64,000 nucleotides of DNA, from the IMG/VR virus record IMGVR_UViG_3300032327_000792, one strand, 5' to 3'. A model generated the notes under the pieces. It was not told where the DNA came from, ran no database searches, and saw only the letters and a program-made list of their open reading frames with translations. This DNA is from a virus (taxonomy: Duplodnaviria; Caudoviricetes). Position numbers and translations under genes: made by a program. This document shows positions 10,619 to 56,145 of the stretch, one piece after another; positions within the stretch are counted from its first letter, which is position 1; each line of letters opens with the position of its first letter.

Positions 10619-13600
10619 TTTTTCTTCCGGTCCAACATGTTGTAAGGATGTCTTTTGTCGTTCATGTATTCCACAGCTAACAGCATCACAGAATTCTTGG
10701 CTGACTGTGGCACACTGGCCCAACTGCTGTAGCCATTCTTTTGGGCAGCCATGTTCATGAATTTTCTGGCTCGTTCAGCATCACTTTCTGTGCTTTCGCC
10801 TAATTCGGGTCTTGGATCTACGCTACGCAAATATATGTCTGCCGCAGGATTCTGTTGCTCCAGGTTAGTCTGCACTACATTGGCTTGGTTATAACTGGCA
10901 TTGGTCATTGAATGAATAACCCGTCCGGTTATGCGATCCACAAATTCCCAATTGCGGCGAACTTCTGTGGCATCTTGAGGTCGGTCAAAGTTTTGTGCTA
11001 TATCTGGCTCAATATCATTCACTGCTTGCGCTACTCGCCAGCCATAGTTTTCTGTGTCTGCAGGCATGCCTTGATTGCGTAGCCAATTGCTAAACTTGTC
11101 ACCAGCATCCGCCGCATCATCTGCTCGGTACCGTAGTATCACACGATTGTTTCTGCGATCCACAATTTCGTACTGATCTGTGGCCTGAACACGTTGTTGT
11201 AGGCGTTGGCTGTCTACAGCGTTGTCCACTGCTTGTTTAACACCGGTGGCTCGTTGCACTGTGAAGTTGCCTGTGTCCAAATTCTTGTCCTGCAAGTATG
11301 TGATCGCAAAGTCCACAGCCTGAGCCTGACTGGATGCCTGGAATGTGTAGAATGGTAGGCCACTGTGTTTGTTCAATACCACATAGTCTTTGGGTTGAGC
11401 AATTTGTTTGGCCAATTTGGCTCTGCGACTGAGTTTGGGTTCGGGTTCAGTTTTTCCTCCGCCGTAGGGCTCAATGTAGAATGGTATGACATCAGTGTAC
11501 TTTTCACGAGCCTGATCAGCGGCTTCGCCACGTGTGGCAGCATCAATGATTTCCAATGTTTCGTTGTTGTCTTTGCGCATAACACGCCATTGACCTGTGT
11601 TGGTACCCACATCACGCAGTTCGTAGGCCTGCTTGAAATCCATCATGGAACTGGCCGGACTCACACGAGCTTTGGCACGTTCCAGTGCGTCCAGTTCTGT
11701 GTAGTTTGAAAACTCTAGGCCTTCAACTGGTTTGTTGGTGGATCTGTTGTAGAGCCTCCACGAACTCTTGCCTCCTGTGCCATCAGGAACTTCCTTGTTG
11801 ATTACTTTTTCGGCCCATTGTTTTTTGAGTTGTTCAGCAGTGAGTTCACCAGCACTGAACTTGCTGAACAGTTCCAGGTCCCGGTTGCCTTCAGGAGCAA
11901 TTAGCTTGTATAGTTTTTTGTAGTATTCAGGACGCTCTAAGTCAGGACGACCAGCTAGATACATGGCATAGGCAAAGCGACGCATGGTTGATGCCAACAC
12001 GTCTGCTTCACCCTGATCGCCTATGCTTAGGTAATCGCCGCCAGGTGATCTAAATTCAATATAGCCAGGCTTGATATGTGCTGATGTATATTTGGAACCA
12101 CCCACGCCTTGCTGTACATATTTCTGTGCTAACTCAAGCAAATTGCTCTTCATCAACTCTACAGCAGAGGCAATCTTAGGACTGCCACTGGCCACGTTTT
12201 GTTTGATCTTTTTCATGGCCGAAGCAGTGTAGGTATTGGCAGCACGTCCAAACTTGTCCAGCACATACTCGTCACCCATGAACAAGATCAATTTCAAGTA
12301 GTCAACATCACCACCTTTGAATGGTATTGATATGCCCATGTGCAAACCTGTTGAATCGTTGGTGTAAGCATAACCGTCGGAATTGGCCCATGCAATCACT
12401 TTTTCCATCTGTTCAATGGCCTGATTCAATGGCAGTGGTGGACTCACAAGTTCCAATCCAGCATCATCTCGATTATCTGGGCTCAAACTTGAGTCTGGCT
12501 CCAGCACATATTCGTTAGGCACACGACGGGCGGAGTGATAACCTGATCCCACAACCACACGTTTGCCCAGTACTGTTTCAAGTTCGGCAGCAATTTGAGA
12601 CCAGTCACGAGATCCTTCGTTTCTGCTGCTGGTGTTGGTGTAGTAAGGCCAATCCAAATTGTACTCGTTCATGACATCGCTCATCCAGCGTAGACCTATG
12701 TCTGAAAAGAAGCCAGAATCATCCGCATCGTAGCCATTGCGGAATTCATCCAGTGCAGCGTCCCAGTTTGCACCTTGTTTGCGAACTTCATCTTCAACTA
12801 GAGCATCCAATAGATCTTCTGCTGCGCTCTGGGCATCCATGTATTTTTGATACAGGGGATTTTCTTTGGCGTATTCTTGTTGATCGCTGTATTTGGTAAA
12901 GCGAGGAGCCCGTTCGCCAGCTTGAATAATCTCATTCATTTCATCATCAGTTAAATCCAACAACTCCAACTGTTTTTGTATTTCAGTGTCTTTGTCCCAA
13001 TCGCCTTCGTCAACAAGCACCTTACGAATCAAGTCTTCGGCCTCTTGTTCAAAGTCACGCATGATTTGTTCATCACGCCACTCAAAGTAGGCTTCATCCA
13101 GTCTGTCTCTCAATCGATCGGCTTGACGTTCACTCATGCCATATCCACTGTAGTCGTTGGAGAAAAATTCAACAACTTGTTCAATACTGTAGGCACGTTC
13201 GTCCATGTCCATGTCGGCTTCCATGTCATCATCGCTGTCGTCATCTTCACTGCTGGTGTCACGGAATATCAATTCTGCTTCAAAGCCGGCCAAAATACCT
13301 TCGGCTTCGGGTGAATCAGCAAACTTACGCAGAGCTGAAGGACTCATCTTGACTTCGTCTAGCTGTACACTTTCAAACAAGTCAGGATCAAAATCATCAG
13401 CTGAAATAAAGTGAGTGGTGCCATCTCTGTGCTGCAGTTGAACAGCATCATCTTCGGATTCTACTTGACGTATGCTCCAGCCCAGGCTGTTTAACACAGA
13501 TTCAATTTGCGGTTGACGGTCTGTGGCATTCCACCAACGATTGGCCAGCACAAAAATAGGATCTGGAACATCATCGTTGCGGTCACGCCCAGGGCCGGGT

Positions 13601-15861
13601 GCAAATTCATTCACATTGTATGTGGGGTCAGTTTTGATCTTTGGACCGGGACGTTTTACAGGATCCACAGGATCAATGTCAGTGACATCCAGCCCTGTGG
13701 CTTTTATGTCACCAATGAACTTGTGTTCTGTATCTTCGTCACCAAAGCTGATGATGGTACTAGGAGGACCCTGTCCAAAATCGTGTTGCCCTAGACCTTT
13801 CATGTTTGGAATATGTTGACCCAGTTTGTACCAGTCGTACACATCTGAAACATCCACACGTAGCGTGCCAGCTGGCATTGTGGGTTTGAATTCTGGACCA
13901 GGCGGTCGTTGGTTGCCTAGAGCATCTAGTTTAGAGCTCACACGGCCAGTTTCTTTGAACTCGCGTAGGGCATTCTTAAGACCTTTGATCAGTAACTCAG
14001 GATGTCCTTGACTGTCTGTGTTCAAACTCAACTTGTTGGCTTCTTTGCCCACTGCTCCGGGCTGAACATCCACACTCAACGCATTGCTGAACTGTGGTAG
14101 CTTTGCTTGTTTACGTGTGGGAATATAACCCGAAGATTCTTTTACATCATCTTTGTTTTGCATCTGTTTCTGTAGCTGATACAAACGACTTTGATTCTTT
14201 GCGTTAGCTGATCCAGGACCTTGACCCTGTGCTCTTAAAAAATTCTGTAGTTCTTGATCCAGTTCGGCCTTGACACCGGCCCGGTTCATGTTTTTCACTG
14301 TTTGTGCTGTGCGTGCCGCTGTTTGTGCATCTCGAACAGTGCCAGCAGTTGTAGTAGCACAGCCAGGAGTACCTGCTATGCATGCGGCTGCTGCTATTGC
14401 ACCTAACTTTTCTTTTACACCCTCTTGTGTGGGCTTTCGGCGAGGTTTGAAAGGTACCAGCATGTTGGCCGGCAATCTCACAGTTTCACCTGTGTCAGCG
14501 TCTGTGATGGTGACCATGTGACCAACCTGTTGAATCACAGTTCCGCCCTTGGGCAACATTTTGAGACCATAGTTATCAATTACACCGTCGCCGCGTTGGA
14601 ACATCTTGCTTGAGCCCAAACTGTAAGTGGCTTCCATGGTGTGCTCAGTATCAAACAATTCAGGGTGCAGTTGTCCGTATTCACGCATCAGCACACCAGC
14701 TTGAGCATTGGCTTCGTTTTCGTATTCACTGCCTGTGACACCTGCATCGTCAGGTATGTCAGCAACTTCACCTTGACGCTGATGTGTGAGCTCGTGTGCT
14801 ACTGTGCGCAATATGTCCATGACATGGCGATTGGCCAAGCTCACAATCAATTCATTGGTGTCATGATTGTAGCTGCCAAATGTTCGGTTGCGTTTGCTCC
14901 ACACAGGATCACGTTTGAAACGTATCCGGGGCGTGTTTTCAATACCTAATTTTTCAACACAAAAGTTCACAAAGTCTGTGACAGTGTCTTCTGTGGTGGG
15001 TGCAGATTCCTGTATGCTTTCTCCACCACCACCATCGCCTCCTCCACCGTCGGCAGGAGCTTCACCGGAACCGGCAAATCCAAATCCGGGATACCAATAT
15101 CCACCAAAGCCGTATTTTACTTTTTTCTTTTTGGCTTTCTTTTTGCGGCGTTCATTCAAACTCAACTCTGCATCTTTGGCTGCTGCTCTGGCACTGTATA
15201 ATTTTTTAATTGCGCCTTGATTGCGCAACATCTTGAAGGCCAGGTTTTCAGCACCCAGTTCACCGTGTGCATCAAGTCCAGCTTGACGCATGTTTCGGAT
15301 TTTGTTTGCCAACTCTGCAATGGCGTCGCCATCCTGAGAAGCCACAGCAGATTCAATTCTGTGTCCAATGTCTTCATACTTTGACTTCACTGCTTCGTCG
15401 TTGACAGTGGCACGTTGCTTGAGTGGAATTTTTACCCAGTCATTGTTCAGCACACTGTATATGCCCTGGCTCACAGGTTGCTTGCGGGCATCTTCTACAT
15501 AGAGCTCTACATCATAGCCGCCAATGGTGATGTTGTGTTGATCATTGTACTGATACTTTTTGGCATCAAACAGTTCGCGATATACATCATCGGCATCTGC
15601 CTGAGGAATATCTACCACTAGATGTAGATCAATGTCTGAATAGGGTGTGTAAGTGTATCCGGCATTGCTACCTGACACAGTAATGTCTTTTACTTCTATG
15701 TCACTGAGTCCTAGAAATTCTTTAAAATCCTCGGCAATTGCCAACAGGCGCTCACGCACCTCGGGTTTCATTTTTTGCCCGGACCAAACCACTGGATTTA
15801 AAGTGTTGTTGAATTTAACAGCATCTGCTAAATTATAGGAATCTAATTCTGTGATGTTCAT
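10615..15861 (-). CDS. 1748-aa polyvalent protein: pol-beta-type nucleotidyltransferase + HExxH metallopeptidase + amidoligase (COOH-NH2 ligase type 2) + repeats
   Basis: SGSNAGY...SDIDLH...VELYVE; RTVAHELTHQRQ; EPDSSL...GLELVSPP...TNDSTGLHMGI...YIEFRSPG. Confidence 0.75.
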   Translation of the reverse strand: MNITELDSYNLADAVKFNNTLNPVVWSGQKMKPEVRERLLAIAEDFKEFLGLSDIEVKDITVSGSNAGYTYTPYSDIDLHLVVDIPQADADDVYRELFDAKKYQYNDQHNITIGGYDVELYVEDARKQPVSQGIYSVLNNDWVKIPLKQRATVNDEAVKSKYEDIGHRIESAVASQDGDAIAELANKIRNMRQAGLDAHGELGAENLAFKMLRNQGAIKKLYSARAAAKDAELSLNERRKKKAKKKKVKYGFGGYWYPGFGFAGSGEAPADGGGGDGGGGESIQESAPTTEDTVTDFVNFCVEKLGIENTPRIRFKRDPVWSKRNRTFGSYNHDTNELIVSLANRHVMDILRTVAHELTHQRQGEVADIPDDAGVTGSEYENEANAQAGVLMREYGQLHPELFDTEHTMEATYSLGSSKMFQRGDGVIDNYGLKMLPKGGTVIQQVGHMVTITDADTGETVRLPANMLVPFKPRRKPTQEGVKEKLGAIAAAACIAGTPGCATTTAGTVRDAQTAARTAQTVKNMNRAGVKAELDQELQNFLRAQGQGPGSANAKNQSRLYQLQKQMQNKDDVKESSGYIPTRKQAKLPQFSNALSVDVQPGAVGKEANKLSLNTDSQGHPELLIKGLKNALREFKETGRVSSKLDALGNQRPPGPEFKPTMPAGTLRVDVSDVYDWYKLGQHIPNMKGLGQHDFGQGPPSTIISFGDEDTEHKFIGDIKATGLDVTDIDPVDPVKRPGPKIKTDPTYNVNEFAPGPGRDRNDDVPDPIFVLANRWWNATDRQPQIESVLNSLGWSIRQVESEDDAVQLQHRDGTTHFISADDFDPDLFESVQLDEVKMSPSALRKFADSPEAEGILAGFEAELIFRDTSSEDDDSDDDMEADMDMDERAYSIEQVVEFFSNDYSGYGMSERQADRLRDRLDEAYFEWRDEQIMRDFEQEAEDLIRKVLVDEGDWDKDTEIQKQLELLDLTDDEMNEIIQAGERAPRFTKYSDQQEYAKENPLYQKYMDAQSAAEDLLDALVEDEVRKQGANWDAALDEFRNGYDADDSGFFSDIGLRWMSDVMNEYNLDWPYYTNTSSRNEGSRDWSQIAAELETVLGKRVVVGSGYHSARRVPNEYVLEPDSSLSPDNRDDAGLELVSPPLPLNQAIEQMEKVIAWANSDGYAYTNDSTGLHMGISIPFKGGDVDYLKLILFMGDEYVLDKFGRAANTYTASAMKKIKQNVASGSPKIASAVELMKSNLLELAQKYVQQGVGGSKYTSAHIKPGYIEFRSPGGDYLSIGDQGEADVLASTMRRFAYAMYLAGRPDLERPEYYKKLYKLIAPEGNRDLELFSKFSAGELTAEQLKKQWAEKVINKEVPDGTGGKSSWRLYNRSTNKPVEGLEFSNYTELDALERAKARVSPASSMMDFKQAYELRDVGTNTGQWRVMRKDNNETLEIIDAATRGEAADQAREKYTDVIPFYIEPYGGGKTEPEPKLSRRAKLAKQIAQPKDYVVLNKHSGLPFYTFQASSQAQAVDFAITYLQDKNLDTGNFTVQRATGVKQAVDNAVDSQRLQQRVQATDQYEIVDRRNNRVILRYRADDAADAGDKFSNWLRNQGMPADTENYGWRVAQAVNDIEPDIAQNFDRPQDATEVRRNWEFVDRITGRVIHSMTNASYNQANVVQTNLEQQNPAADIYLRSVDPRPELGESTESDAERARKFMNMAAQKNGYSSWASVPQSAKNSVMLLAVEYMNDKRHPYNMLDRKKK

Positions 15862-18696: not shown

Positions 18697-19404
18697 TTAT
18701 TTAGCCACCAATTGTGAGGTCTTGCGAATTAATCCCGGTCGGATCAATGCCAGCATGGTCAACCAAGTGCGGTTGTTGTAGTCCACAAAGAAATAATCCT
18801 GTGTGCGTACAAAAGGCAGTGATAACCATGCTTTTAATGCAGGGCTAATTCTAATGTCAGGCTGATTGTTAAAGAAATTCAATAGTTGATCTTTTTCTCC
18901 AGCAGTCAGCTTGACATTGCGGAAATAGCTTCTGTATTCATGTCGAGGATTGAGCAATGCAATGGTATTTTTGGCACGCACAACCACAGCCTCGGTGTAC
19001 TTTGCCTCACGCACAAAAGGCAAACGTCCAATGCGTTCCAGCAATACAGAATTGTTGCTGTAAATCCAACATTGATTCACCGAAATTACTATTTTGTAGG
19101 GTTCAGTTACCTGTTGTAAAAAGTCAACAAACGCATACAATTCGTCACGAGTTTGATCAGTAATAGGCTGATGTTGGCGCACAAAGTTATTTTGTGGCCA
19201 GCGAGTACGCACACGTTCACGCCACTGTTTTCGGTGGTTCAGTATATCAGTGATTTTTTCAATGTCCAAGGTGTTACGCAACGCAGTGGCTTCATTCAGC
19301 CGCAAGCGTATGCAGTATTGCCAGTGATCGTAAAACAATTGATCACTGTCAATGGACTTAAAGTTTGGGCTTTGTTGGGTCAAGGACAATGTATCCATCC
19401 GCAT
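18697..19404 (-). CDS. Hypothetical protein
   Basis: 235-aa ORF overlapping the clpA 3' end. Confidence 0.6.
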   Translation of the reverse strand: MRMDTLSLTQQSPNFKSIDSDQLFYDHWQYCIRLRLNEATALRNTLDIEKITDILNHRKQWRERVRTRWPQNNFVRQHQPITDQTRDELYAFVDFLQQVTEPYKIVISVNQCWIYSNNSVLLERIGRLPFVREAKYTEAVVVRAKNTIALLNPRHEYRSYFRNVKLTAGEKDQLLNFFNNQPDIRISPALKAWLSLPFVRTQDYFFVDYNNRTWLTMLALIRPGLIRKTSQLVAK

Positions 19405-21634
19405 CTACCACCGGAACGGGTATAGGTTCTTGTATCACAAATGTCACTGCGTCACCGTCAAGTTCGGCATGCAACACACAGTCACTCAATCGGTCAAACA
19501 AAATACGTTTACTCAGTGGCACGCGAATTAATTCATCAATTTTGCGTGACAATGGTCTGGCACCCATTTTGGGATCGTAGCCTTTTTCCGCCAACAAATC
19601 AATCACTGCTTCGCTGAGCGTTAATCGGATGCCTTTGACACTCAAACTTGTTTGCAATTGATCCACAAATTTGATCACAATCTTTTTGATGGCCAATTGG
19701 TCTAATTTCACAAACTTGCACACTTGATCAATACGATTGCGTAATTCAGGTTTGAAGAACTCTTTCATGGCCCGGTCTTCTGATCCTGTCTTTTCCAGGC
19801 TCTGTCCAAAACCAATGTTGTTTTGTTCATTGTCACGGGCACCCAAATTTGACGTCATAACAATAATGCAGTTCTTTAGATTCACAGTTTTACCATTGGC
19901 ACTGGACAATCTACCTTCGTCCAACATCTGCAACATGATATTGATCACGTCCGGATGAGCCTTTTCAATTTCGTCAAAAAGAATGATCGAAAATGGATTT
20001 TTTGAAATGTCTGAAATCAGCTTGCCGCCACCTATGTTGCCGTCTTCAAAGCCCACATATCCTGGAGGAGCACCAATCAAACTGGATACAGTATGCTTTT
20101 CTTGATATTCGCTCATGTCGTATTTCAGCAACTGCATGTCTAAATTTGCACTTAATAATTTGGCCAATTCTGTTTTGCCAGTGCCTGTTGGACCCATGAA
20201 CAAGAACGACGCAATGGGTCTGTTTTCATTGCCGATGCCTGAGAAGTTGATATACACACGCTCTAGCACAGAATCAACAGCGGCATCTTGCCCGTACAAC
20301 TTTTGCTTGATATTGGATTCCAAATCCACAATCTTGGCTGAACGTTCATTTTGCAATCTATCCAAGGGAATATTAGCAACTCGGGACAACTGTGCCATAA
20401 TCATTTCTTTTGTAATGGTCACATTGCCCTGATCTTTTACACGTTGTCCAGCACAGGCTCCATCAATCAAATCAATTGATTTGTCGGGATTTTTACGATC
20501 ATGAATATAACGTCCTGATAATTCCACAGCAGCAGTCATGGCTTCTGTGTCAATCATCACATTGTGGAAAGTTTCCAAGCGTGGGCTCAATCCAATGAGA
20601 ATTTGCTCAGTGACTTCTGCTGTGGGTTCATCCACAGACACTCTATGGAAACGACGCATCAGGGCACGATCTTTTTCAAATGATTCGTAGTATTCTTCCC
20701 ATGTGGTTGACGCCACCACTTTTAAACTACCTTTGGTAATGGCTGGCTTCAACATATTGGCAAAGTCCAGGCTTGAATTATTGCCAGCACCTGCACCTTT
20801 CATGGTGTGCGCTTCGTCAATGAACAAAATACAATTGCCTTTGCTTTCCAATGCGCCAATTACTTGCTTGAATTTCTCTTCAAATTCACCGCGATATTTT
20901 GAGCCTGCCAACAAAGATCCAATTTCCAATCCCCATACTTCGTGGCCTCGAAGAAACTCCGGCACACGTCCTGCTATAATTTCCTGTGCTAGGCCATCCA
21001 CAATGGCAGTTTTGCCCACACCAGGATCGCCTACCATCAGCACATTGGCCTTGAATCGACGGGCCAACACAGTGATCATTTCATCCAATTCTGAACTGCG
21101 TCCAATCATGGGTTCCAGCTTGTTTTCTTGAGCCAATCTTGTGAGGTTGGTACAGTGTTCTTCCAACACTTCTGTGGCCTGCTGAGTGTTTAGCTTGACA
21201 TCCTTTTGGTTGTAGTTCTTGCCGTAGAAGTCCACGAACTCAGCTTTCTTTACACCGTACTTCAACAAGAAGTAATGAGCATGACTGTTGGTCTCGGACA
21301 TCATGGCCAAATAAAGATCCACTGTGGTAACACTGCGACGCCCTGTGAACAACACCTGTGTGAGAGCACGATTAAAACAACGTTCCAGTGCATTGGTCTT
21401 TTTGGGTTGTATGTCGCCTTGTTTGATTAGATTGACCAGGCTGTTTAAGTATGCCTCTAATTCTTCTTCAAACATGACCACATCCGTGCCGTATTTTTCC
21501 AACACTTTGCGAAAGGCAACATGACGAATCATGGCCAACAACACATGTTCTGTCAGCACATATTCATGTTGCTTGGTTCGAGCAATTTTGACTGCTTCGT
21601 CAACAATTTGTTCAATTTCAGGATTGTTTTGCAT
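19358..21634 (-). CDS. clpA: ATP-dependent Clp protease ATP-binding subunit ClpA
   Basis: Clp N-domain; two AAA+ modules (GDPGVGKT/LFIDEAH and GPTGTGKT/LFDEIEKAH); GAPPGYVG; IGF ClpP-binding loop; GARPL. Confidence 0.95.
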   Translation of the reverse strand: MQNNPEIEQIVDEAVKIARTKQHEYVLTEHVLLAMIRHVAFRKVLEKYGTDVVMFEEELEAYLNSLVNLIKQGDIQPKKTNALERCFNRALTQVLFTGRRSVTTVDLYLAMMSETNSHAHYFLLKYGVKKAEFVDFYGKNYNQKDVKLNTQQATEVLEEHCTNLTRLAQENKLEPMIGRSSELDEMITVLARRFKANVLMVGDPGVGKTAIVDGLAQEIIAGRVPEFLRGHEVWGLEIGSLLAGSKYRGEFEEKFKQVIGALESKGNCILFIDEAHTMKGAGAGNNSSLDFANMLKPAITKGSLKVVASTTWEEYYESFEKDRALMRRFHRVSVDEPTAEVTEQILIGLSPRLETFHNVMIDTEAMTAAVELSGRYIHDRKNPDKSIDLIDGACAGQRVKDQGNVTITKEMIMAQLSRVANIPLDRLQNERSAKIVDLESNIKQKLYGQDAAVDSVLERVYINFSGIGNENRPIASFLFMGPTGTGKTELAKLLSANLDMQLLKYDMSEYQEKHTVSSLIGAPPGYVGFEDGNIGGGKLISDISKNPFSIILFDEIEKAHPDVINIMLQMLDEGRLSSANGKTVNLKNCIIVMTSNLGARDNEQNNIGFGQSLEKTGSEDRAMKEFFKPELRNRIDQVCKFVKLDQLAIKKIVIKFVDQLQTSLSVKGIRLTLSEAVIDLLAEKGYDPKMGARPLSRKIDELIRVPLSKRILFDRLSDCVLHAELDGDAVTFVIQEPIPVPVVDADGYIVLDPTKPKL

Positions 21635-24624: not shown

Positions 24625-24888
24625 TTAGTTTCGTCCCCAATTAACTCTACTCCACACACGTTCGTGACACCAATAAATGAATGGCTTTACAATCATTTCT
24701 GTGGCTCCTATGCCTAAGCTCATAATGAAATGTCCTGTGATAGCATAGCTGATGGCAATAGTGGTCAATGTACCGCAACAGCGATAACTGTAGGCTTTGA
24801 CAAGACTGCGTACAGCAGTCTCGCCGTTATTTAAGGCCCAGCTCTTGACGAATTTTTGTAGCACTGATTGAATGTATTGCTTCATCAA
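24625..24888 (-). CDS. DUF2061-like small membrane protein
   Basis: ETAVRSLVKAYSYR...YWCHERVWSRVNWG; the true start may be downstream of 24888. Confidence 0.7.
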   Translation of the reverse strand: MMKQYIQSVLQKFVKSWALNNGETAVRSLVKAYSYRCCGTLTTIAISYAITGHFIMSLGIGATEMIVKPFIYWCHERVWSRVNWGRN

Positions 24889-25687
24889 ACACTTCCTGTT
24901 CTATTCGATAACCCACATCACGTCCGTAAGTGATATTCACAATGTTGGGCACGACCTGTATTTCATACTGTCCTTGATAGATAGGATCTAGATCTCTGCG
25001 TATGTAACTCTTTACTTGTTCTATAGCAAATGGGTTAGATCCTTGCCACCCTTGACAGTCACGTATTTGTATGACTACCTGTCCTGTCTTGGCAATGGCA
25101 CGTTCAAACAAAGCTCTGTGACCAGCATGCCAAGGTTGCCAGCGGCCCAACATCTGTACAGTTTCTTGTTGCCAATCAAAGGTGGGTCTACGACGATTTT
25201 CTAATATATGCTCGCCCACAAATTCAGCCCATTTTTCTGCATTTTGTTCTGTAATTCGGAAGTCATAGACAGCTGGTTCTACAAACAGTTTGTTGGTATC
25301 TTCAAAACGCCCAGCATCAATAGTGTCCATCCATATGGTCCAGTCTGCTTTGAAGTTGTTGCGCATTTCAACCAAGGGTGCCACAAAGTCACAGATCACA
25401 AATTCTCCCGAACACTCTACTGCAAATTGCAACATACGTAGACTTTGACGAATACGACCTTCGTTTGAGAAATCCCAATCATTGAATTTTCTACGAACAT
25501 CGTCGGCATTGAACCAATTTACTCTTACCTTCATGAAATTGGAGTCTGGAATTCCTTCGTAATTTAGTATTCGTTGAGGGTTGATTTTTTCTAAATCACC
25601 ATTGTCTTCTAGATACTTCTTCAATGCGCCTGCTAGATAGGTTTTTCCTGAACCAGGCAAGCCCATTATCAATATACGTTGTGTCAT
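24827..25687 (-). CDS. Adenylylsulfate-kinase-like P-loop domain fused to an HxGH nucleotidyltransferase domain
   Basis: GLPGSGKT, NADDVRR, VICDFVAP; then GRWQPWHAGH and ISATKIR. Confidence 0.8.
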   Translation of the reverse strand: MTQRILIMGLPGSGKTYLAGALKKYLEDNGDLEKINPQRILNYEGIPDSNFMKVRVNWFNADDVRRKFNDWDFSNEGRIRQSLRMLQFAVECSGEFVICDFVAPLVEMRNNFKADWTIWMDTIDAGRFEDTNKLFVEPAVYDFRITEQNAEKWAEFVGEHILENRRRPTFDWQQETVQMLGRWQPWHAGHRALFERAIAKTGQVVIQIRDCQGWQGSNPFAIEQVKSYIRRDLDPIYQGQYEIQVVPNIVNITYGRDVGYRIEQEVFDEAIHSISATKIRQELGLK

Positions 25688-29048: not shown

Positions 29049-29077
29049 ATTATAGCAGATCAGAAGTTTCTGGTCAA
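29049..29077 (-). promoter_or_regulatory. Sigma70-type promoter
   Basis: TTGACC-17-TATAAT upstream of the HAD gene. Confidence 0.8.
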
Positions 29078-29985
29078 CCGGGACAATTAAACTGGCATCC
29101 GTGTTCGGGTGCAGTAAGTATGGAATCATAAAATTGTATAGTCTTCTGCTGGGACAATACTTCAGTGATAGTGGTATTTTTTATATTATAGTCGGACCGA
29201 TTTTTACCAAAATGTGATTTATAATAAAAATTATAATCGGTTATTCTGCAACAACCACTGTAGTATCCACCGGCAGAAATATAATGACTTTTATTGTTGT
29301 AACATTCGGGATTAACTGTAAAATTTTTACTTGATGCTGTTTTCCAGTCCGCCTGCGGCTGATATGTATTTCTTAGATATTGAGGATCTGTAATTTTTAA
29401 ATGTGATAAAGTATCTTGGTCAAATCTATTGCTAGGTTTCACAACAAATCGGTCAACTTTCATTTGTTCGGCCAATAACCGAGTTTTTTCCATAGAATCA
29501 ACATTGTATCCAAAAGGTATATATTTCCACTCAGTTTGACATGGCGATTCCACACATGCTTTTATACCTACTTCGATAGATTCCCAATCTCCGTTGACTC
29601 GATATTGAGTAAAATTTTCTGGGGATCCATCAATACTAAATTGCACAATATCTTGATCGGACAACAAACTACATAATTCTTTCCACCAACTATCTTTTTT
29701 GTAACTTCCGTTGGTCACAATACAAAGCACCGCACCTTTTTCTTTGAGTTTTGCAACAAAATCAATAAACTCCGGATGATAGATTGGATCTCCATAGTTG
29801 CCGCAAAGAAGTATTGGAACTCGGGCAAGATCAATGTCTAAGAATTTTAATAGATCATCAATATCCAGGGATTGATTTTTCCAGTGATCTGGCCATTGGT
29901 TTAAAAATTTTGTTCGACTGCACTCAGAACATTTTAATGTGCAGATATTGGTAGGTTCAATATGAAACCCTTGGGGTAAAATCAT
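29074..29985 (-). CDS. Radical SAM protein with C-terminal SPASM/twitch-like Cys
   Basis: CTLKCSEC (CxxxCxxC), GNYGDP, TNGS, FSIDG. Confidence 0.85.
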   Translation of the reverse strand: MILPQGFHIEPTNICTLKCSECSRTKFLNQWPDHWKNQSLDIDDLLKFLDIDLARVPILLCGNYGDPIYHPEFIDFVAKLKEKGAVLCIVTNGSYKKDSWWKELCSLLSDQDIVQFSIDGSPENFTQYRVNGDWESIEVGIKACVESPCQTEWKYIPFGYNVDSMEKTRLLAEQMKVDRFVVKPSNRFDQDTLSHLKITDPQYLRNTYQPQADWKTASSKNFTVNPECYNNKSHYISAGGYYSGCCRITDYNFYYKSHFGKNRSDYNIKNTTITEVLSQQKTIQFYDSILTAPEHGCQFNCPG

Positions 29986-30272
29986 TTGACTTTGTTAATT
30001 TCTTCCCCATTGATATTCAACGGATGTCCATTTTCTTCAAACAGGCGTTCAATGGTATGAGCATAGTGTTGGTAATAATAAGCAACAATTCGGTCCCAAT
30101 CCTTGGGCACTTGTGCATCGCCCATGCTGGCCAATATCACTTGTTGATCCTTAAAGTCCAAGATCACATTGGCTGTTTGTAGATCACGGCGTTTAAGATT
30201 TTTACTCACAGCCATGACTTCGTCAATTTGGCCAGTAGGTTTACGATAGTAAGTTAAAATTAAATATCTCAT
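29982..30272 (-). CDS. Hypothetical protein
   Basis: 96-aa ORF with ATGA overlaps. Confidence 0.65.
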   Translation of the reverse strand: MRYLILTYYRKPTGQIDEVMAVSKNLKRRDLQTANVILDFKDQQVILASMGDAQVPKDWDRIVAYYYQHYAHTIERLFEENGHPLNINGEEINKVK

Positions 30273-31189
30273 TTGAGTCCTGCAAGTTCGATTAATGTTG
30301 CTGATAAATTAATTTCTTGATCTGCTACCATGGGCACATTGATCAAGCCATTGCGTATAATAACAATGGCCTGATCCTGACGTTCAGGCGCTTTTGACCA
30401 TAGTTCTAAGTTGTCGTACATCCAACGGAATACATCTTCCATTTCTTCTGGACGCACACTGGCACACATCAGTTTGCGTGCTTCTGTAATCTTGCCGGCC
30501 TTGAACAAGTTTACTGCATCCAGTTTCCAATCTTTGGCACCGCCTTCGTCACCATTGGGTGGAGACAAACGTCCTTCTTGGCTGTTCATTTGGCACATAT
30601 TCAAGCATTTACGCAAGTCCGGATAAGTTGCTTTAACATAACTGTCCAAGGTATCTAAATCAAATTCAATGCTTTCAGTGACCAACACAGTGGCCATTCT
30701 AGCAGTGAACTCAGTGACGTCTACACGTTCAATATGAAAACCTTGACACCTGCTGTGGAGAGCTGGTATGATACGATTAGGATAATTACAAGTAAGAATA
30801 AACCTAGCACTGGCGTGATAGGTCTCCATGACGCCACGTAGCGCCGCTTGCCCGTTGGGCGAAATATAGTCCGCTTCATCCAACAACACCACCTTAAATT
30901 CGCCAAATGGCATAGTTTGTACAAATCCTGTAATCTTGTCACGGATTGTGTCCACCGAGTTTTCACGCGATGCATTGATCTCCAACACATCGTAGCTGTC
31001 AATACCCAACTGATTGATCAAGATTTTTGCCAAGGTAGTCTTGCCCACACCTGGCGCTCCCGAAAACAACAAGTGCGGTATTGATCCAGCTTTGATCCAG
31101 CCAGCTACTTGATCTTTTTGTGCTTGATCTCTAAACACATAACCATCTATGTCTCGAGGTCTGTATTTTTCAGTCCAGAGTTCTTTCAT
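30269..31189 (-). CDS. Sliding clamp loader AAA+ subunit (RFC small subunit / gp44-like)
   Basis: LWTEKYRP, GAPGVGKTT, INAS, DEAD, ALHSRC, PDLRK; likely start MKELW at 31189. Confidence 0.92.
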   Translation of the reverse strand: MKELWTEKYRPRDIDGYVFRDQAQKDQVAGWIKAGSIPHLLFSGAPGVGKTTLAKILINQLGIDSYDVLEINASRENSVDTIRDKITGFVQTMPFGEFKVVLLDEADYISPNGQAALRGVMETYHASARFILTCNYPNRIIPALHSRCQGFHIERVDVTEFTARMATVLVTESIEFDLDTLDSYVKATYPDLRKCLNMCQMNSQEGRLSPPNGDEGGAKDWKLDAVNLFKAGKITEARKLMCASVRPEEMEDVFRWMYDNLELWSKAPERQDQAIVIIRNGLINVPMVADQEINLSATLIELAGLK

Positions 31190-31340
31190 TGTTGTCCTTG
31201 TCTGTTTGTGCCTGTTGGGCAATCCATAAATTTAATCGGTCCATATAACCCTCTTCGGTCAATCCGTGCCATCCTATGCACCGGCCTGTGGGGCTACGAC
31301 CGCATCCGCACTGTCCTACTACTTGTGGCAATGGCATCAT
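31170..31340 (-). CDS. Small Cys/His protein, CDGSH-like (CGCGRSPTGRCIGWH)
   Basis: Manual translation, 56 aa, ATGA overlap with the upstream gene; C-x-C-x2-S-x4-C-x-G-x-H spacing. Confidence 0.6.
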   Translation of the reverse strand: MMPLPQVVGQCGCGRSPTGRCIGWHGLTEEGYMDRLNLWIAQQAQTDKDNNERTLD

Positions 31341-31819
31341 TGCGTTGTTTCCTTAGAATTTCGAAAAGTTTCTGCTTCTACTACACGCCTACGCAAACTG
31401 CTGGAACTGAATGAGTGATCACGACCATTGAAGATTGGACGAATACCACGTATGTGTCCTTCGTTTTTACCTGTGTAATTTTGATTTTCATACTCTACTC
31501 CCAGTATACGCACATCCACAGGAAGAATCAACAACAAGTCAACCAAATCCTGTTCTGTTTGGTACACAACAATTTCATCTACATAACGTACTGCGGCCAA
31601 TTGTATCTGTCGTTCTACCACACTTTGAATAGGTGCGTTCTTGGAATCAGGCCGATCAATTGATGCGTCCGTTTGTAGGCCAGCAATCAAGTAATCACAA
31701 TGATTCTTGGCTTCGGCCAACATTGCAATATGTCCGGCGTGCAACATATCAAATTGGCTGAATGTAATGCCAATTACCTTGCCTTGTTCTTTGAGTTCTC
31801 TAACTTTGTTGAATATCAT
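31337..31819 (-). CDS. Cytidylyltransferase (TagD/glycerol-3-phosphate CT-like)
   Basis: FDMLHAGH, AGLQTD, AVRYVDEI, FSSSSLR. Confidence 0.88.
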   Translation of the reverse strand: MIFNKVRELKEQGKVIGITFSQFDMLHAGHIAMLAEAKNHCDYLIAGLQTDASIDRPDSKNAPIQSVVERQIQLAAVRYVDEIVVYQTEQDLVDLLLILPVDVRILGVEYENQNYTGKNEGHIRGIRPIFNGRDHSFSSSSLRRRVVEAETFRNSKETTQ

Positions 31820-32043: not shown

Positions 32044-32427
32044 TTATTGTTGTGCAACTACGTAGACAGCATCACTCATGGTGTCGTCCTGTGGTGGATG
32101 GTCTGAAACCAGCAGTATATCTTTTGGGTCAATTTTTCGGAGAGTTTTTTCTCCTGATTCGTCTTCAACTTCGACCCCGCGAGTCCAACGTCCGTGTGCT
32201 ACACAGATCCATTGTCCTGTGCAAACATCTTGTTGATCCGGGCCAGTGGCATACACACAACCCCATCGTGGCCTGATGCCCAATCCGGTTCCGTCGTCAT
32301 TCAACAAAATAAGCCCAGAACTGGTTGTGCGTTGTTCAAATGTCATTTCGGTAACAACAACCCAATCTCTGATGGGTTGTAATTGATCTCTTTTGATTTG
32401 ATGTGGTGCAAATGCTGCTTTGTTCAT
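32044..32427 (-). CDS. groES: Co-chaperonin GroES-like protein
   Basis: LQPIRDWVVV, TSSGLIL mobile loop, GCVYATGP, IDPKDILLV. Confidence 0.85.
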   Translation of the reverse strand: MNKAAFAPHQIKRDQLQPIRDWVVVTEMTFEQRTTSSGLILLNDDGTGLGIRPRWGCVYATGPDQQDVCTGQWICVAHGRWTRGVEVEDESGEKTLRKIDPKDILLVSDHPPQDDTMSDAVYVVAQQ

Positions 32428-32435
32428 AGTTCCTC

Positions 32436-32948
32436 TTAGAGTTTTCTAACGCCGGGTGTTTGTCGTGCAAGTTGGCGCGGGGTTTTTTCAAGTTCTTGTT
32501 GCACAGTTCTACTACGGGCAATGGCACCAGCTAAGCCGCCTAGTACTGGGCTTTCTGGTGTAGCGGCCACCGGTTCTGTAGTTGCAACGGTTTCGGTAGC
32601 TTCGGTAGTTGCAAGGTTTTCAACAACATCGTTGGCAACAACGTCGTTGTCCTCGGGTAAATCAGCAAATGTATCTTCGCTGAACACCGGTGACAATTCT
32701 TCGGCCCGTACCTTGTTCATGGCTGCTGTACTGGTTGATACTGGAGTGTTGGTTACATTGGTTGTACGACGATTTTGTCGTTGAACTTGTCGAGATTTGC
32801 GTTCAATAACTCGGTTATTGCTATTGATCACATCACCTCTGGCATTGACTCCCATGTTGCCAACCGCTCTTACGCTTTCATTCTGTAACAACAGTGAGCC
32901 CATGTCAACAGTTTTGCCCATGGCTGATCGGTATTGTTTTTTGGTCAT
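32436..32948 (-). CDS. Hypothetical protein
   Basis: 170-aa ORF after TAAATA (32972-32977); YRSAMGKTVDMG...AVGNMGVNARGD. Confidence 0.65.
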   Translation of the reverse strand: MTKKQYRSAMGKTVDMGSLLLQNESVRAVGNMGVNARGDVINSNNRVIERKSRQVQRQNRRTTNVTNTPVSTSTAAMNKVRAEELSPVFSEDTFADLPEDNDVVANDVVENLATTEATETVATTEPVAATPESPVLGGLAGAIARSRTVQQELEKTPRQLARQTPGVRKL

Positions 32949-32974: not shown

Positions 32975-33505
32975 TTAACGCAGAAATTCTTCCACATCTA
33001 ATTCATAGAACATGGAATCAATTTTATGAACTCCTAATTTGTACAACACATAACTGGCCACACTTGATCCACGACCCACGCCCCAGATCACACTGTTAGC
33101 AGTCATCACATCCACTAGATATTTCAAAAAACGCAACAGGTCAAACAAGTTGCGTTCTTGATACAACAACAACTCCTGTCCACACCGTTGTAATTCTGCG
33201 TCAGTGGTACATAAATTCAGTATGTGTTGTGCTATGTCTAATTGCTGATACTGTTCGGGCATGTGCCAAGTGTTTTGGAGTCTGCGATCAAACTCTTCCA
33301 TGCTTTCAGTTGACGTATTGTGTTTGATCATTGTAGGAATATCATCCAACAACATTGATACTTTTTCTAGATCAACACTGGCGTCAACTATCATGTTTCG
33401 AAAAGACGCAATTTCACGACTTTGCATGATCAAGTCACACACATCGTCTTGGTCAAAAATCATTTCACCGTAGTTATTTTGTTTCATCTTTGGCAAAATC
33501 TGCAA
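32975..33505 (-). CDS. dnaE: DNA polymerase III alpha-subunit fragment (split DnaE piece)
   Basis: WGVGRGSSVASYVLYKLGVHKID...EEFLR aligns by eye with DnaE GPGRGS..GSLVAY.L.IT..DP....FERFL. Confidence 0.8.
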   Translation of the reverse strand: MQILPKMKQNNYGEMIFDQDDVCDLIMQSREIASFRNMIVDASVDLEKVSMLLDDIPTMIKHNTSTESMEEFDRRLQNTWHMPEQYQQLDIAQHILNLCTTDAELQRCGQELLLYQERNLFDLLRFLKYLVDVMTANSVIWGVGRGSSVASYVLYKLGVHKIDSMFYELDVEEFLR

Positions 33506-34085
33506 ACACTACCTTGTTATCATCGTTGACATTGATCAGTATACTTTCGTCCCAACACAATCCCAGCTCTCTCCAGCCTGCACCAATGTGAGGCAACTCA
33601 ACGGTTTTTTCATTGTCAACCAAAGTTAAATCGCAATGCACAGCCTCTGGCTCCGACCACCACCCTGTGTCAGCAAATGGACCTTGGGCATCTCGATCAT
33701 TGTGCAAATACACAATATTTTCTCCAAGCTCACTGCAAATTTCTATTTCGTCAATGATCATCCTAGATTCCAGTATGGCATTGAGTTTACAGTATAACAT
33801 TATTCCGATCACTTGGTCTAGAGGATCTTCGGGCAATGTGGTTATGTTGATTCCGGCTGCGGCATATGCTTGACACTGTGCCCACTCATCACTGTTTATA
33901 AACACAGTGCTGTTGAGTTGATTGTGTAGGAAGTATTTGATTCGATCCAGCGCAATGTTGTGATCTTCACCTTCTTCGCTGTTGGTAGTAATGTGTAATT
34001 TTACTTGATAGTTGTTCATACGCATTTGATCATCGTAGAATATACCAGCAGTAAACACAGTTGAGTAACGCAGTCTTACGTTCAT
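33474..34085 (-). CDS. Hypothetical protein
   Basis: 203-aa acidic ORF in the operon. Confidence 0.6.
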   Translation of the reverse strand: MNVRLRYSTVFTAGIFYDDQMRMNNYQVKLHITTNSEEGEDHNIALDRIKYFLHNQLNSTVFINSDEWAQCQAYAAAGINITTLPEDPLDQVIGIMLYCKLNAILESRMIIDEIEICSELGENIVYLHNDRDAQGPFADTGWWSEPEAVHCDLTLVDNEKTVELPHIGAGWRELGLCWDESILINVNDDNKVVFADFAKDETK

Positions 34086-35262: not shown

Positions 35263-38124
35263 TTATCCTAAAATTGTCCTCTTGGGGAATACAAGGTATT
35301 TATCGTACTCTTGTGTGTTGCTGTACATATCTACAGGTGCGATAAATCTTACACTTGATCCATCAAATGTAGTAGCATCTGCGCCCACTACCTCAATATC
35401 CCAAGTGGCTCCTGTTCCAGAGCCAGTGATGTTTGTACCTATTACATTTGTATATGTATCGCCTGTGCTAAACAGGGGTGCAAATCCAGTGCCTTGAGCT
35501 TGTTCGATAGTGCCATTGATATCCACCTGTTCTACAGTGATTGTTATGTTGTTGGTAACATCAACTCCACCAACTTGACTGCCTAAAATAAGGATACGAT
35601 CACCTACTGCATATCCAGTTCCTCCCACAAAAACAAAACTTGAATCGTCGAGGGCAGGCAACTGATAATGATTGTCTAGGTCAAATGTGGTTTCGGCAGC
35701 AACAGGTTCCCATGCACCAGTGGTTGAATCGCCAGCTGGATCCCAGTTGTGACTCAACAATCTGTCAAGTTCGTAACGATCAACTTCAAAATCAATCAAA
35801 TTCAATCGTTCACCAAACTTGGTGCGTACATAATAAGCAATCTGATCACCGTGTCCAGGTTTGACATAGGCCAGAACCCATGACGGTATGAATCCTAGCA
35901 CACGGCCATTGGCCTGTTTTGAAGTCATCCACAATGGTAATACATTGGCAATTTGACCCACTGTGTCTATCACTTGATCACGCATGTTGATCAAACTGTT
36001 TGGGTACACTGTGCTTATTTCGGTAGAATCTGCTTCATTGATAGGATAAGGTAAAGTAACTTGTTTGCTGACGCTCAGTCCTTGGTTGTTTAGCAGATTA
36101 TCTTGTATGGCACTGTAAACTACTTCGTAGATAACCACACCGTTGGCATCCACTGCTTGAGCTACCCGTATTTCTCCCAGAGTAAGATTTTTCCAGTAAT
36201 GATTTTCGTACAAACTACTGTAGTAGTCTTCTATGGTGCTGGCTGTCAATCCAAACGCATGTTCATAGATCACTTGTGTAGCACGACCAAAGTTTGGATC
36301 GGTGGGTCTATACAATAGATCCGGCTGGAATATGTCTTGATTTTGTATCAAACTGTCAATAAATTCTCGATCAGCCAGTGGCGGCATAGCTTGAATATAT
36401 AAATTCTCATATGGCTCGTTGTATTCTCGAATCACAGTGATTGTAAACGTTTTGAATACACTTACCAATCCATCTGTACTGTAAGCGTTTACGGTAAATG
36501 TATGACTCATGTCAAATGTAGTTTCTGTATTTTGACCAGTTACCGCAAGATCATTTGATGTAACATCAAATGTTGTGGTTCCTAAATCCAATGCAAATGT
36601 ATCAAAACTCACTCGGCCAGCAATTTCACCTGATGGCAATAATTGTAGTCCTTGTGGAAGACTACTGGTGCTCCCAGATTCTAATTGATATTGTACTGGT
36701 ATACCGGCTATGTTGGTTGCCAATACATACAGTGTACTGGTAGCGCCATTGACAATTGTGCCTAAATCACTGTTGGTGAGCCAGGTTACCTCTGTGTCAA
36801 TCGGTCCAACTATAGTCAACGAATAATTGTATTCGTTACTGATAATTGCCGGATTGTCTTTTTTATAAACTCGTATGTAAAAGTTATAGGTATTGTCGGT
36901 TAGCCCCAACGAAGGAATGTAACCGTATAACCATCCAGTGCCAGGATCCAATGTAAGTCCCGGAATTGTGGTTGAATCTCCAATGTCGTATCCAAGGTCA
37001 TATTCAACTTGGTCGCCGTCGAGGTCAAGACCCACAAATTGCACAGCAAAGAAGTTGTTGTTACGCACTGTTCCAATACTGCCAACTGCTGGACTCACAA
37101 TGAATGGCACACGCACTGGACTGACATCGGCTGTGATAAATGTATTGTCAGCTGTGATAGTTGTGGTATCCGCTGTTAATGAATCCTTGCTGTAAACAAA
37201 AATACTAAAAGTTCTCAAATTGCTACTTTTACCATCTGATAGCTCCAGTACAAATTCGTAGTTAGCATCAACGCTTTGTGTTGAGAAATCAAATGGATAT
37301 TCGGCATAGCCTTGTCCATCACGACTGAACCCAGCTGTGGCTTCCACCGGACTCAACGGAGTAATAAATCCCGAAATCAATCCGTCAGCACTGACAGTCA
37401 ATCCAGGTGGCAACAATCCTGCTTTGAGAGACACAATCACAGTGTCTGATGGGTCAACGTCGGTGTATTCAACTTGTATTGGAACAATCTGTTGACCGTC
37501 GTATTCCTGGGCAATTTGTCCAGCCGGAGTAATCCACTCTGGGGCATCCTGTCCTGTAATTGTTAATGTGAACGTTCTATCGTTGATGCGATCCAGAGTT
37601 CCTACTCTGGATCGAGTGTATGCTCTCACAGTAAATTTACTGGTAACGTCTTCTGACACCTGTGAAGGAACTCCTTGAATACTGGCCACAGCCTTGGGTA
37701 TACCTTCAATTAGACCATTGTCGGCAATTTGTATTCCGGATGGTAGTGCTCCAGCCTGTATAGTAAACAACACATGCTGAGTAAAGGTAGCGGTCATTGA
37801 TCCTGAGCCCGTGGTCAGTGCAATTGGAACCGTAGAGTATTCAAATGGTGCAATCGAAAAATGTGTGCTATCAACCACCGCCAACACAAAATATCTGACA
37901 GCAGGACTTACTCCGCCAAACAATCCACCTGAAAATATTACATTGAGTCCTGGCCAAATATTGGCAGTGCTGTCACAGGTAATAAGATTGGTAGAGGATG
38001 ATGTTGCTGTGCAAGTGTTGATAGCCACTGTGGCAGTGTCAGCCAACATATTGGTTTGATAGAATATACCTTCGGGTATGGTTCCTAAACTACCAGCAGG
38101 AGTAATCCAAATAGGTTGAGCCAT
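35263..38124 (-). CDS. Baseplate wedge-like protein with putative Ig (He_PIG-like) repeats
   Basis: Repeated WITPAG / G.LP.GL.L...G.I.G / Y.F.VRA units across 953 aa. Confidence 0.7.
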   Translation of the reverse strand: MAQPIWITPAGSLGTIPEGIFYQTNMLADTATVAINTCTATSSSTNLITCDSTANIWPGLNVIFSGGLFGGVSPAVRYFVLAVVDSTHFSIAPFEYSTVPIALTTGSGSMTATFTQHVLFTIQAGALPSGIQIADNGLIEGIPKAVASIQGVPSQVSEDVTSKFTVRAYTRSRVGTLDRINDRTFTLTITGQDAPEWITPAGQIAQEYDGQQIVPIQVEYTDVDPSDTVIVSLKAGLLPPGLTVSADGLISGFITPLSPVEATAGFSRDGQGYAEYPFDFSTQSVDANYEFVLELSDGKSSNLRTFSIFVYSKDSLTADTTTITADNTFITADVSPVRVPFIVSPAVGSIGTVRNNNFFAVQFVGLDLDGDQVEYDLGYDIGDSTTIPGLTLDPGTGWLYGYIPSLGLTDNTYNFYIRVYKKDNPAIISNEYNYSLTIVGPIDTEVTWLTNSDLGTIVNGATSTLYVLATNIAGIPVQYQLESGSTSSLPQGLQLLPSGEIAGRVSFDTFALDLGTTTFDVTSNDLAVTGQNTETTFDMSHTFTVNAYSTDGLVSVFKTFTITVIREYNEPYENLYIQAMPPLADREFIDSLIQNQDIFQPDLLYRPTDPNFGRATQVIYEHAFGLTASTIEDYYSSLYENHYWKNLTLGEIRVAQAVDANGVVIYEVVYSAIQDNLLNNQGLSVSKQVTLPYPINEADSTEISTVYPNSLINMRDQVIDTVGQIANVLPLWMTSKQANGRVLGFIPSWVLAYVKPGHGDQIAYYVRTKFGERLNLIDFEVDRYELDRLLSHNWDPAGDSTTGAWEPVAAETTFDLDNHYQLPALDDSSFVFVGGTGYAVGDRILILGSQVGGVDVTNNITITVEQVDINGTIEQAQGTGFAPLFSTGDTYTNVIGTNITGSGTGATWDIEVVGADATTFDGSSVRFIAPVDMYSNTQEYDKYLVFPKRTILG

Positions 38125-56100: not shown

Positions 56101-56145
56101 GGCAACGCTGTAACTGTTCGTTACGGTTGGATCCAAATCAGTTAA
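53113..56145 (+). CDS. Tail fibre / long virion appendage protein
   Basis: gp9/gp10-like N-terminus (IDIGAVANDGTGDPLRTAF), many GN[IV]T repeats, a Gly-rich GGDI repeat segment, distinct C-terminal tip. Confidence 0.8.
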   Translation: MANQIIIDIGAVANDGTGDPLRTAFNYVNNNFSNVWATGVANSNIQFDGNRILTTNTNGNLVLAPNGIGKVQSNVDIVPNANNTVSLGSLTRQWNTVYARNLTVGGDTTFNNLTVSGNLTVQGNTIQIGNIVTDTKTIQLANTAATANAANGSGITVGANDNIATMLYSSTSNTWVMNIGANITGNVTAPYFFGNGSQLTGLPVQYGNANVVTLLAGFGSNTISTTGNITGGFIFGNISQANGFPATYGNSNVTTLLSNLGSNIISGTGNITTTGNITGGFILGNVRFANGLPATYSNANAVAYGESGWAGNIIPSGNAVYSLGNSTNQWNDLYVSNTTIFMNNVPLSLTAGNVLTVNGNAVLQNNSNTTISTTGNVTSGNLISPTLNNSGNISVVASGNSWLFGSTGNLVLPRGGVVYETSIPSGGLDGNTIALKPSGGTNPNQQLLIYPTGGADDNHLHLTTGNLYNTELFLGNDNLYVKLANTGNVVINSNDDTGNSAQWTFGTTGTTIFPTLTVTRGDRTGSLTGQALVFGDSTQEALISTPNGTNAIADSQRIVINPGAGYANTTGEGGDIYLYAGRGGDAGGTGGDIKIRGGLGPMDGAGGYLDIMGGEAAGNGVGGRIDIQGGESGNSNGGDINITGGQGRNGGDINILGGTGTAGPGGDLTLQGGVSSNGLAAYGNVVVNAGASQWQFDNTGNLRLPSNTFAVNYANGTAVALGGSYGNANVATFLTAYGSNTITTTGNITGGNLISSTGIVGNIELIMGNVANASATRTRILSDGAFSYIQTGNGTAGTTGNIVFSPYQSPTQRVVINTASGNITATGNVTAQNFTGNISITGNVQGTTANVTLVAGSYSTVFDNTGNLTLPGNTFAVNYANNTPVDVVTRFESFWTVPVGNSTQSFTVSASNTYYMWVDCSIPNGILTWNATGTVTNTNVPVVGAQYAWVYTGGGTPIDFTSIPDQFVGTANTIVRSNVAPSATTNRFDFGINNASGNAVTVRYGWIQIS

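Follow-up and report, generated by a model that had tools for sequence, protein, structure and literature searches.

The open reading frame at positions 32975-33505, on the minus strand of the window (the whole 64,000-nucleotide, or 64-kb, stretch of viral DNA analysed here), encodes the first part of a DnaE-type palm and ends just before the catalytic aspartates. We regard it as quite probable that this protein, hereafter the N-piece, is one subunit of a two-piece active nucleotidyltransferase. Group 2.2 jumbo phages, which have a T4-like replisome, are predicted to encode a 'minimal DNA polymerase III alpha' in two genes; the N-piece would be its N-terminal, nucleotide-binding subunit, and the product of the second gene, the C-piece, its C-terminal one. 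The split mini-DnaE architecture is already known from a genome prediction of 2021, and the window adds one environmental member and no new principle. Two points are settled here: the truncated DnaE can be put down neither to a pseudogene nor to an intein, and relatives do encode the predicted partner, which starts at the aspartate motif. The split Pol III family is of interest as a natural minimal core of a bacterial-type replicative polymerase, and as a putative second polymerase in abundant environmental jumbo phages.

The N-terminal piece and its end point

The ORF opens with TTG, encodes 176 aa and closes with a TAA at 32975-32977. The likelier product is a 170-aa protein (MKQNN...) that starts at the ATG at position 33487, because the relatives begin at the equivalent of this codon (MKQN or MIQN) and the ESM Atlas contains the 170-aa form, identical letter for letter. 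Residue numbers such as G138 count from this ATG. The GRGS motif (G138, R139, G140 and S141) is read from the sequence at 33065-33076, minus strand, and the protein terminates in ELDVEEFLR-stop, so that the length, motif and terminus given in the sequence-only reading were all recovered.

In its 176-aa form the protein matches the Pfam family DNA_pol3_alpha (PF07733) with 31.2 bits against a cut-off of 23.9, residues 106-175 aligning with profile positions 25-94 of 260. The match to phrog_11127 runs from residue 10 to residue 176 and from profile position 10 to the last of its 171 positions (E 1.9e-41). A profile built from eight family members places the last 69 residues on residues 324-392 of E. 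coli Pol III alpha, ending on FERFL; on its own, the N-piece sequence can be aligned with residues 378-454 of Taq Pol III alpha. Profile and structural model together put the end of the protein at about residue 392/393 of E. coli DnaE. The equivalence to FERFLN, immediately ahead of the aspartate motif, that had been proposed from the sequence thus holds, and a terminus at the equivalent of residue 393 leaves no room for an intein, in keeping with the proposed lack of an intein-like terminus. The catalytic aspartates of the E. coli enzyme are D401 and D403, and the N-piece stops about 8 residues short of them.

An AlphaFold model of the N-piece built on 65 sequences has a pLDDT of 90.0. Residues 71-170 of the model (32978-33277, minus strand) superpose on residues 277-393 of E. 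coli Pol III alpha with Z 10-11.5 and an rmsd of 2.3-2.8 A over 95-99 residues, and the match to M. tuberculosis DnaE1 (residues 305-413) reaches Z 12.6. Overall, the VIA-align comparisons with Pol III alpha and DnaE1 gave Z 10-12.6, rmsd 1.9-2.8 A and 94-99 aligned residues, and C-family polymerases were the only structures with Z of 2 or more. The superposed region is the first palm segment, made of a helical scaffold and the triphosphate-binding GRGS loop. The alignment starts only at residue 68-74, and the preceding ~70 residues (33278-33487, minus strand) form a family-specific N-terminal extension. This extension is a confidently modelled alpha/beta region (pLDDT 72-90) found only in the same phage family. 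It matches no PHP model in Pfam and has no counterpart in any region of the solved Pol III structures, and an ESM Atlas search with these 70 residues returned TM above 0.5 for the same phage family alone, all other rows lying below 0.5.

Judged by sequence, the stand-alone N-piece represents a large conserved family with a common end point. When 1.84 billion representatives were searched exhaustively with HMMER, 995 homologous clusters reached an E of 1e-3 or lower, 717 of them 1e-10 or lower. The best 150 of the 995 homologues are 92-222 aa long, mostly 165-180, and most terminate where the N-piece does. All nine IMG/VR relatives likewise end in EFLR-stop (EFLRV-stop in one). Across 65 family members, down to 33% identity, R101, E105, G136, the GRGS motif, S145, L148 and H154 are invariant.

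The frame does not continue beyond its stop, because the gene that follows (32436-32948, minus strand) encodes an unrelated 170-aa protein of phrog_14844, a family with no assigned function, and has a Shine-Dalgarno-like AAGGAA of its own. The 1.2 kb downstream of the stop contain no D-x-D-x-D in any frame. Rejoining by a frameshift or an intron, which had been named as an outcome that would speak against a natural split, is thereby contradicted as far as the sequence goes.

Source phage and gene neighbourhood

The window is part of the genome of an uncultured jumbo phage whose relatives include PA5oct, 121Q/RaK2 and Atu_ph07. The nearest cultured relatives of the N-piece are found in jumbo myophages, namely the PA5oct-like Pseudomonas phages (48% identity to the PA5oct copy), Atu_ph07, Phosso, SCTP-2 and the 121Q/PBECO4/RaK2 group. 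Identity to the nearest IMG/VR contigs is higher, at 61-64%.

The N-piece gene is followed by a small ORF, a GroES-like gene and a gp44-like clamp-loader gene, in an order that recurs in 121Q and, where annotated, in PA5oct. The GroES/gp31-like co-chaperonin (32044-32427, minus strand) is syntenic with the N-piece in both phages. The clamp-loader gene (30269-31222, minus strand) encodes a T4 gp44-like (RFC-like) large subunit, recognised by the Pfam families AAA and DNA_pol3_delta2 and by phrog_168 (E 4.5e-77), and 121Q has a gp44-like clamp loader in the equivalent neighbourhood. The window contains this loader and no family B polymerase (PolB). A PolB of 825-1010 aa is encoded in all four of the genomes tested for it (PA5oct, 121Q and the two relatives G001 and G002), and in these phages the ordinary client of the gp44-like loader is the T4-type PolB. 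The proposal that the split enzyme works with an RFC-like clamp loader is therefore not borne out: only the gene neighbourhood points to it, and a clamp-binding module could be recognised in neither of the two proteins.

On the other side lies a 203-aa gene (33474-34085, minus strand), whose stop overlaps the ATG of the N-piece by 14 nt (ATGAAACAAAATAA). A gene of equal length occupies the same position in G002 (L017:2406-3017), and the positional counterpart in PA5oct, EST35_0287, is weakly similar (19% identity, pairwise E 4e-6). The 203-aa protein belongs to no Pfam or PHROG family, and tblastn found no match to it in cultured phages, including those with the split enzyme. A structural lead from the Atlas, to the T-fold of 6-pyruvoyl-tetrahydropterin synthase (PTPS)/QueD, has a TM of 0.55-0.59 and is below the reliability level of the tool.

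Several other genes of the window stand out. A 758-aa ClpA/ClpB-type double AAA+ chaperone is encoded at 19358-21634, minus strand (Clp_N, AAA, AAA_lid_9, AAA_2 and ClpB_D2-small), and in PA5oct, too, a ClpA-like gene lies on that side of the N-piece. Two radical-SAM proteins (59592-60893 and 29074-29985), a cytidylyltransferase-like protein (31337-31819; phrog_7878, heptose-phosphate adenylyltransferase-like) and a kinase (24827-25687; phrog_10255) are all encoded on the minus strand. They are possibly nucleotide-sugar or base-modification genes in the replication/chaperone region. Four ORFs are very large, at 10615-15861, 2940-5852 and 35263-38124 on the minus strand and 53113-56145 on the plus strand (1748, 970, 953 and 1010 aa). 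None belongs to a Pfam family, and the one PHROG match among them is that of phrog_36119 to residues 1-233 of the longest. They are probably virion or tail-fibre proteins.

The partner gene and the composite enzyme

The partner that the sequence-only reading expected, a gene starting near DIDID, is not encoded in the window and is found in complete relatives. Searching the 64 kb by tblastn with the PA5oct C-piece and its two upstream neighbours gave chance matches only (E of 0.19 or higher), and a six-frame scan for D-[IVFLM]-D-[IVFLM]-D gave two irrelevant matches and no plausible partner. In PA5oct the partner is EST35_0220, a 200-aa protein that begins MAKVVTDVDIDV, with the Asp stretch DVDIDV, and is encoded 43.6 kb from EST35_0288, the N-piece gene of that phage. 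The full-length DnaE profile phrog_405 matches two ORFs only in this genome, the N-piece (positions 362-429) and EST35_0220 (579-679 and 776-808). In G001 (98% complete) and G002 (346,856 bp, with terminal repeats, 100% complete) the N-piece is about 60% identical to that of the window, and each genome has one homologue of EST35_0220 (E about 1e-50), an ORF beginning MSADIDIDF; the G002 protein, encoded at L020:1495-2070, is 192 aa long, and the N-piece of that genome is at L017:3004-3510. The absence of a complementary fragment from complete genomes had been named as the sign of a pseudogene, and G002 encodes that fragment. In the complete relatives the C-piece has ~190 aa and lies 30-100 kb from the N-piece in another gene neighbourhood, in some genomes on the opposite strand.

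C-piece relatives are extremely abundant in metagenomes, where they form at least 8000 clusters at 90% identity, all with E of 1e-5 or lower, and 584 stretches of IMG/VR encode one. Among the C-piece ORFs read from the best 80 of the 584 loci, 16 of 16 start with MSADID within two residues of the start codon, while more distant relatives start a few residues ahead of DVDIDV. In an alignment of 28 sequences, down to 36% identity, the invariant positions are D4, D6, D8, R12, H35, G38, K67, D69, N72, R137, P138, K140, F166, K167, H170 and Y174; the C-terminal tail is variable. As a side observation, the C-piece is by far the better conserved of the two within the same environmental clade: C-pieces are 72-96% identical to that of G002 (L022-L101), whereas N-pieces are 60-66% identical to that of the window (L011-L018). 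The C-piece also has a conserved upstream neighbour of phrog_11058 (G002 L020:68-592 and PA5oct EST35_0219, L010:5230-5937; E 3e-36 and 9e-61), which in PA5oct carries an N-terminal C-x2-C...H-x-C zinc-finger-like stretch and could be a further partner or a regulator.

The C-piece has no Pfam match, and its HMMER match to the PDB is weak (E 0.68); its assignment to the DnaE type therefore rests on collinear motifs, on phrog_405 (E 1e-7) and on the fold. Despite the weak score, all four segments of this match follow the order of E. coli DnaE and coincide with its functional motifs, at 403-424, 539-564 (K-x-D), 616-641 (RPG) and 750-767 (F-N-K-S-H). The AlphaFold model of the C-piece (pLDDT 90.7, pTM 0.82) had C-family polymerases as all of its 16 best Foldseek matches in the PDB. 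By VIA-align, 185-190 of its 192 residues superpose on Taq Pol III alpha 460-838, E. coli 399-784 and PolC 970-1297 (Z 9.4), and the next unrelated fold has Z 3.0. The two pieces are exactly complementary: in E. coli numbering the N-piece stops at residue ~393, and the C-piece takes over at ~399.

The two genes occur together. Among cultured-phage records the N-piece is present in 93 and the C-piece in 96, with one copy per record, and the tallies by genus are nearly identical (N-piece/C-piece: Escherichia 34/34, Pseudomonas 11/11, Salmonella 8/8, Erwinia 8/8 and Klebsiella 10/11). Of four large IMG/VR contigs chosen solely for their C-piece, all four also have a single N-piece ORF of 169-197 aa at a distance of tens of kb; the one miss in this test was a fragment that is 39% complete. 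A distant C-piece accompanies the N-piece in each of the relatives tested that are complete enough (PA5oct, 121Q, G001, G002 and G005-G008), and Atu_ph07 has both. The rest of DnaE was sought in five genomes (PA5oct, G001, G002, G006 and 121Q), where phrog_405 matched nothing besides the two pieces and its positions 1-360 (the PHP region) and beyond 809 were unmatched. The fingers family PF17657 is absent from PA5oct. A word-based search, which is weak evidence, found no longer fused form of the C-piece, with one spurious match at 14% coverage.

These data support the core of the sequence-only reading, a naturally split C-family polymerase: the enzyme is split, lacks an intein and in relatives has a partner that starts at the Asp motif, but it is not a full DnaE. 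In the models the N-piece is helical around the GRGS loop, and all of the Pol-beta-like palm beta-strands and the three aspartates are in the C-piece. The N-piece would accordingly contribute the helical first palm segment and the triphosphate-binding loop, and the C-piece (~190 aa) the palm beta-sheet, the three metal-binding aspartates and pared-down fingers. Most likely, the two form a non-covalent complex, a nucleotidyltransferase of ~360 aa that has no thumb and whose active site is made up by both chains. We infer this assembly in trans from sequence comparison, and a non-covalent heterodimer is the best reading because neither piece has a whole active site, the pieces are complementary, they co-occur and their catalytic residues are invariant.

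The alternative that the N-piece is a decaying DnaE remnant, or is rejoined to its missing part by an intein, a frameshift or an intron, owes its appeal to a first impression only, that of a DnaE domain cut in mid-palm, and we give it a negligible probability. Hundreds of diverged homologues share the length and terminus of the N-piece. Neither junction has an intein-sized extension: the N-piece stops at the equivalent of FLR, and the C-piece has its Met 3 residues before the first Asp. The pieces are tens of kb apart, and on opposite strands in some genomes, and past the N-piece stop comes the unrelated gene, which has a ribosome-binding site to itself, while none of the frames there contains a DxDxD. 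Sequence evidence, as far as it reaches, refutes this reading. In a second alternative the N-piece acts on its own and without catalysis, for instance as a mimic, as a decoy or in regulation, by binding nucleotides or the partners of host Pol III, and the C-piece does something unrelated. A protein without any catalytic aspartate, with a family-specific 70-residue extension of no known fold and with its gene 30-100 kb from the C-piece in a different neighbourhood, would suit such a function. We nevertheless find it very improbable, given the tight co-occurrence with the C-piece, the exact meeting of the two at E. coli residues 393 and 399, an invariant GRGS that is sensible only beside a metal site, and a C-piece that keeps the Asp triad and has no triphosphate loop of its own.

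A third possibility accepts the heterodimer and makes it a Pol-beta-fold nucleotidyltransferase acting on another substrate, for instance in tailing, nucleotide signalling or the handling of modified nucleotides. The thumb, most of the fingers and the beta-binding and OB domains are absent by alignment, a PolB is at hand for genome replication, PA5oct has been reported with a modified G (PMC12191111), and the gene coupled upstream of the N-piece has the PTPS/QueD T-fold lead; all of these would fit. Weighing against it, the invariant R-P-G/S/A and F-K-K-S/A-H motifs, which in Pol III alpha belong to the dNTP- and template-binding fingers, are kept, and the whole C-piece superposes on the palm and fingers of DNA-bound Pol III and PolC. 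The T-fold lead, for its part, is too weak to count as reliable for the tool used, and tblastn with the upstream gene found no match in the cultured phages that carry the split enzyme. On balance we think this possibility unlikely.

For the two-piece nucleotidyltransferase itself, we consider a DNA polymerase with an auxiliary or repair function likelier than a transferase that works without a template. Its two subunits would associate physically and carry out templated synthesis beside the phage PolB, which is the likelier main replicase of these phages. Templated DNA synthesis is plausible; processive templated synthesis is not assured, because the enzyme lacks a thumb and any C-terminal module for binding the clamp or the DNA duplex. 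The C-piece has 28 residues where E. coli has ~115 (424-539, the thumb) and ~21 where E. coli has ~109 (641-750), and the alignment leaves the distal fingers and the beta-binding and OB domains without any counterpart. The E. coli DnaE domain boundaries used here follow the Lamers et al. 2006 structure. There is a small chance that the reconstituted ~360-aa pair is the smallest C-family polymerase, thumb-less and clamp-independent, with a specialised job beside PolB and not simple back-up replication. Such a job could be, for example, synthesis with or across modified bases, or non-templated transfer. The 70-residue extension and the translationally coupled, T-fold-like upstream gene might tie the enzyme to nucleotide modification.

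Comparison with known polymerases

Bacterial DnaE/Pol III alpha (E. coli, T. aquaticus and M. tuberculosis DnaE1) and PolC share with the N-piece the Pol-beta-like palm and the GRGS loop, and with the C-piece the DxDxD and K-x-D aspartates and the RPG and F-x-K-S-H finger motifs (fold Z 9-12.6). The phage enzyme differs from them in consisting of two polypeptides, split inside the palm, and in having ~360 aa against ~1160, without the PHP, thumb, beta-clamp-binding, HhH and OB modules and about half of the fingers. A complete palm with three aspartates is not united in one polypeptide: the ORF stops at EEFLR, and relatives carry the aspartates on another protein.

Cyanobacterial DnaE is also split between two distant genes; its halves carry intein fragments, and protein trans-splicing ligates them at a point within the fingers. 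The phage enzyme resembles it in the distribution of DnaE over two distant genes, but the phage split comes after the GS loop and before the first catalytic aspartate, and neither junction has any intein-sized sequence. As the defining features of both were looked for and are lacking, the window enzyme is neither a full-length DnaE nor an intein-split DnaE. An unsplit PHP-less phage DnaE is represented by phrog_11165 (782 positions). The window N-piece matches its positions 46-111, and the two PA5oct pieces match collinear parts (37-112, then 256-299 and 461-487). The matches are weak (E 0.006 to 2), and the phrog_11165 protein is, unlike the split enzyme, a single polypeptide about twice as long. 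In nucleus-forming chimalliviruses, as reported in a bioRxiv 2026 preprint (PMC13648687), it is the family B polymerase that is divided among separate proteins. This is again a split jumbo-phage polymerase, but of family B and not C, and in another phage group.

The closest counterpart is the split minimal Pol III alpha predicted from genomes in group 2.2 jumbo phages, Atu_ph07 being named among them, by Iyer, Anantharaman, Krishnan, Burroughs and Aravind (2021, Viruses 13:63, PMC7824862). These authors described it as accompanying a family B polymerase, with no other Pol III domains, and suggested that it could serve as a model for what the ancestral Pol III was like. We found no experimental work on it in the literature, biochemical or genetic; a 2026 jumbo-phage review does not mention it, and the PA5oct omics paper does not discuss it. 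PHROGs v4 labels both units 'DNA polymerase' (phrog_11127 for the N unit and phrog_11778 for the C unit), as do several GenBank/RefSeq records. The window N-piece has the features of phrog_11127, being a stand-alone protein of ~170 aa with the first palm segment and GRGS that ends before the aspartates. The window family and the split minimal Pol III (PMC7824862) are alike in having an N-terminal NTP-binding unit and a C-terminal Mg2+- and template-binding unit in distant genes, in the lack of other Pol III domains and in the presence alongside of PolB, all of these as observed in the relatives, and in a T4-like clamp loader, which the window itself encodes. The window copy differs from it in no way of kind: it comes from an uncultured phage, and its own C unit lies outside the window.
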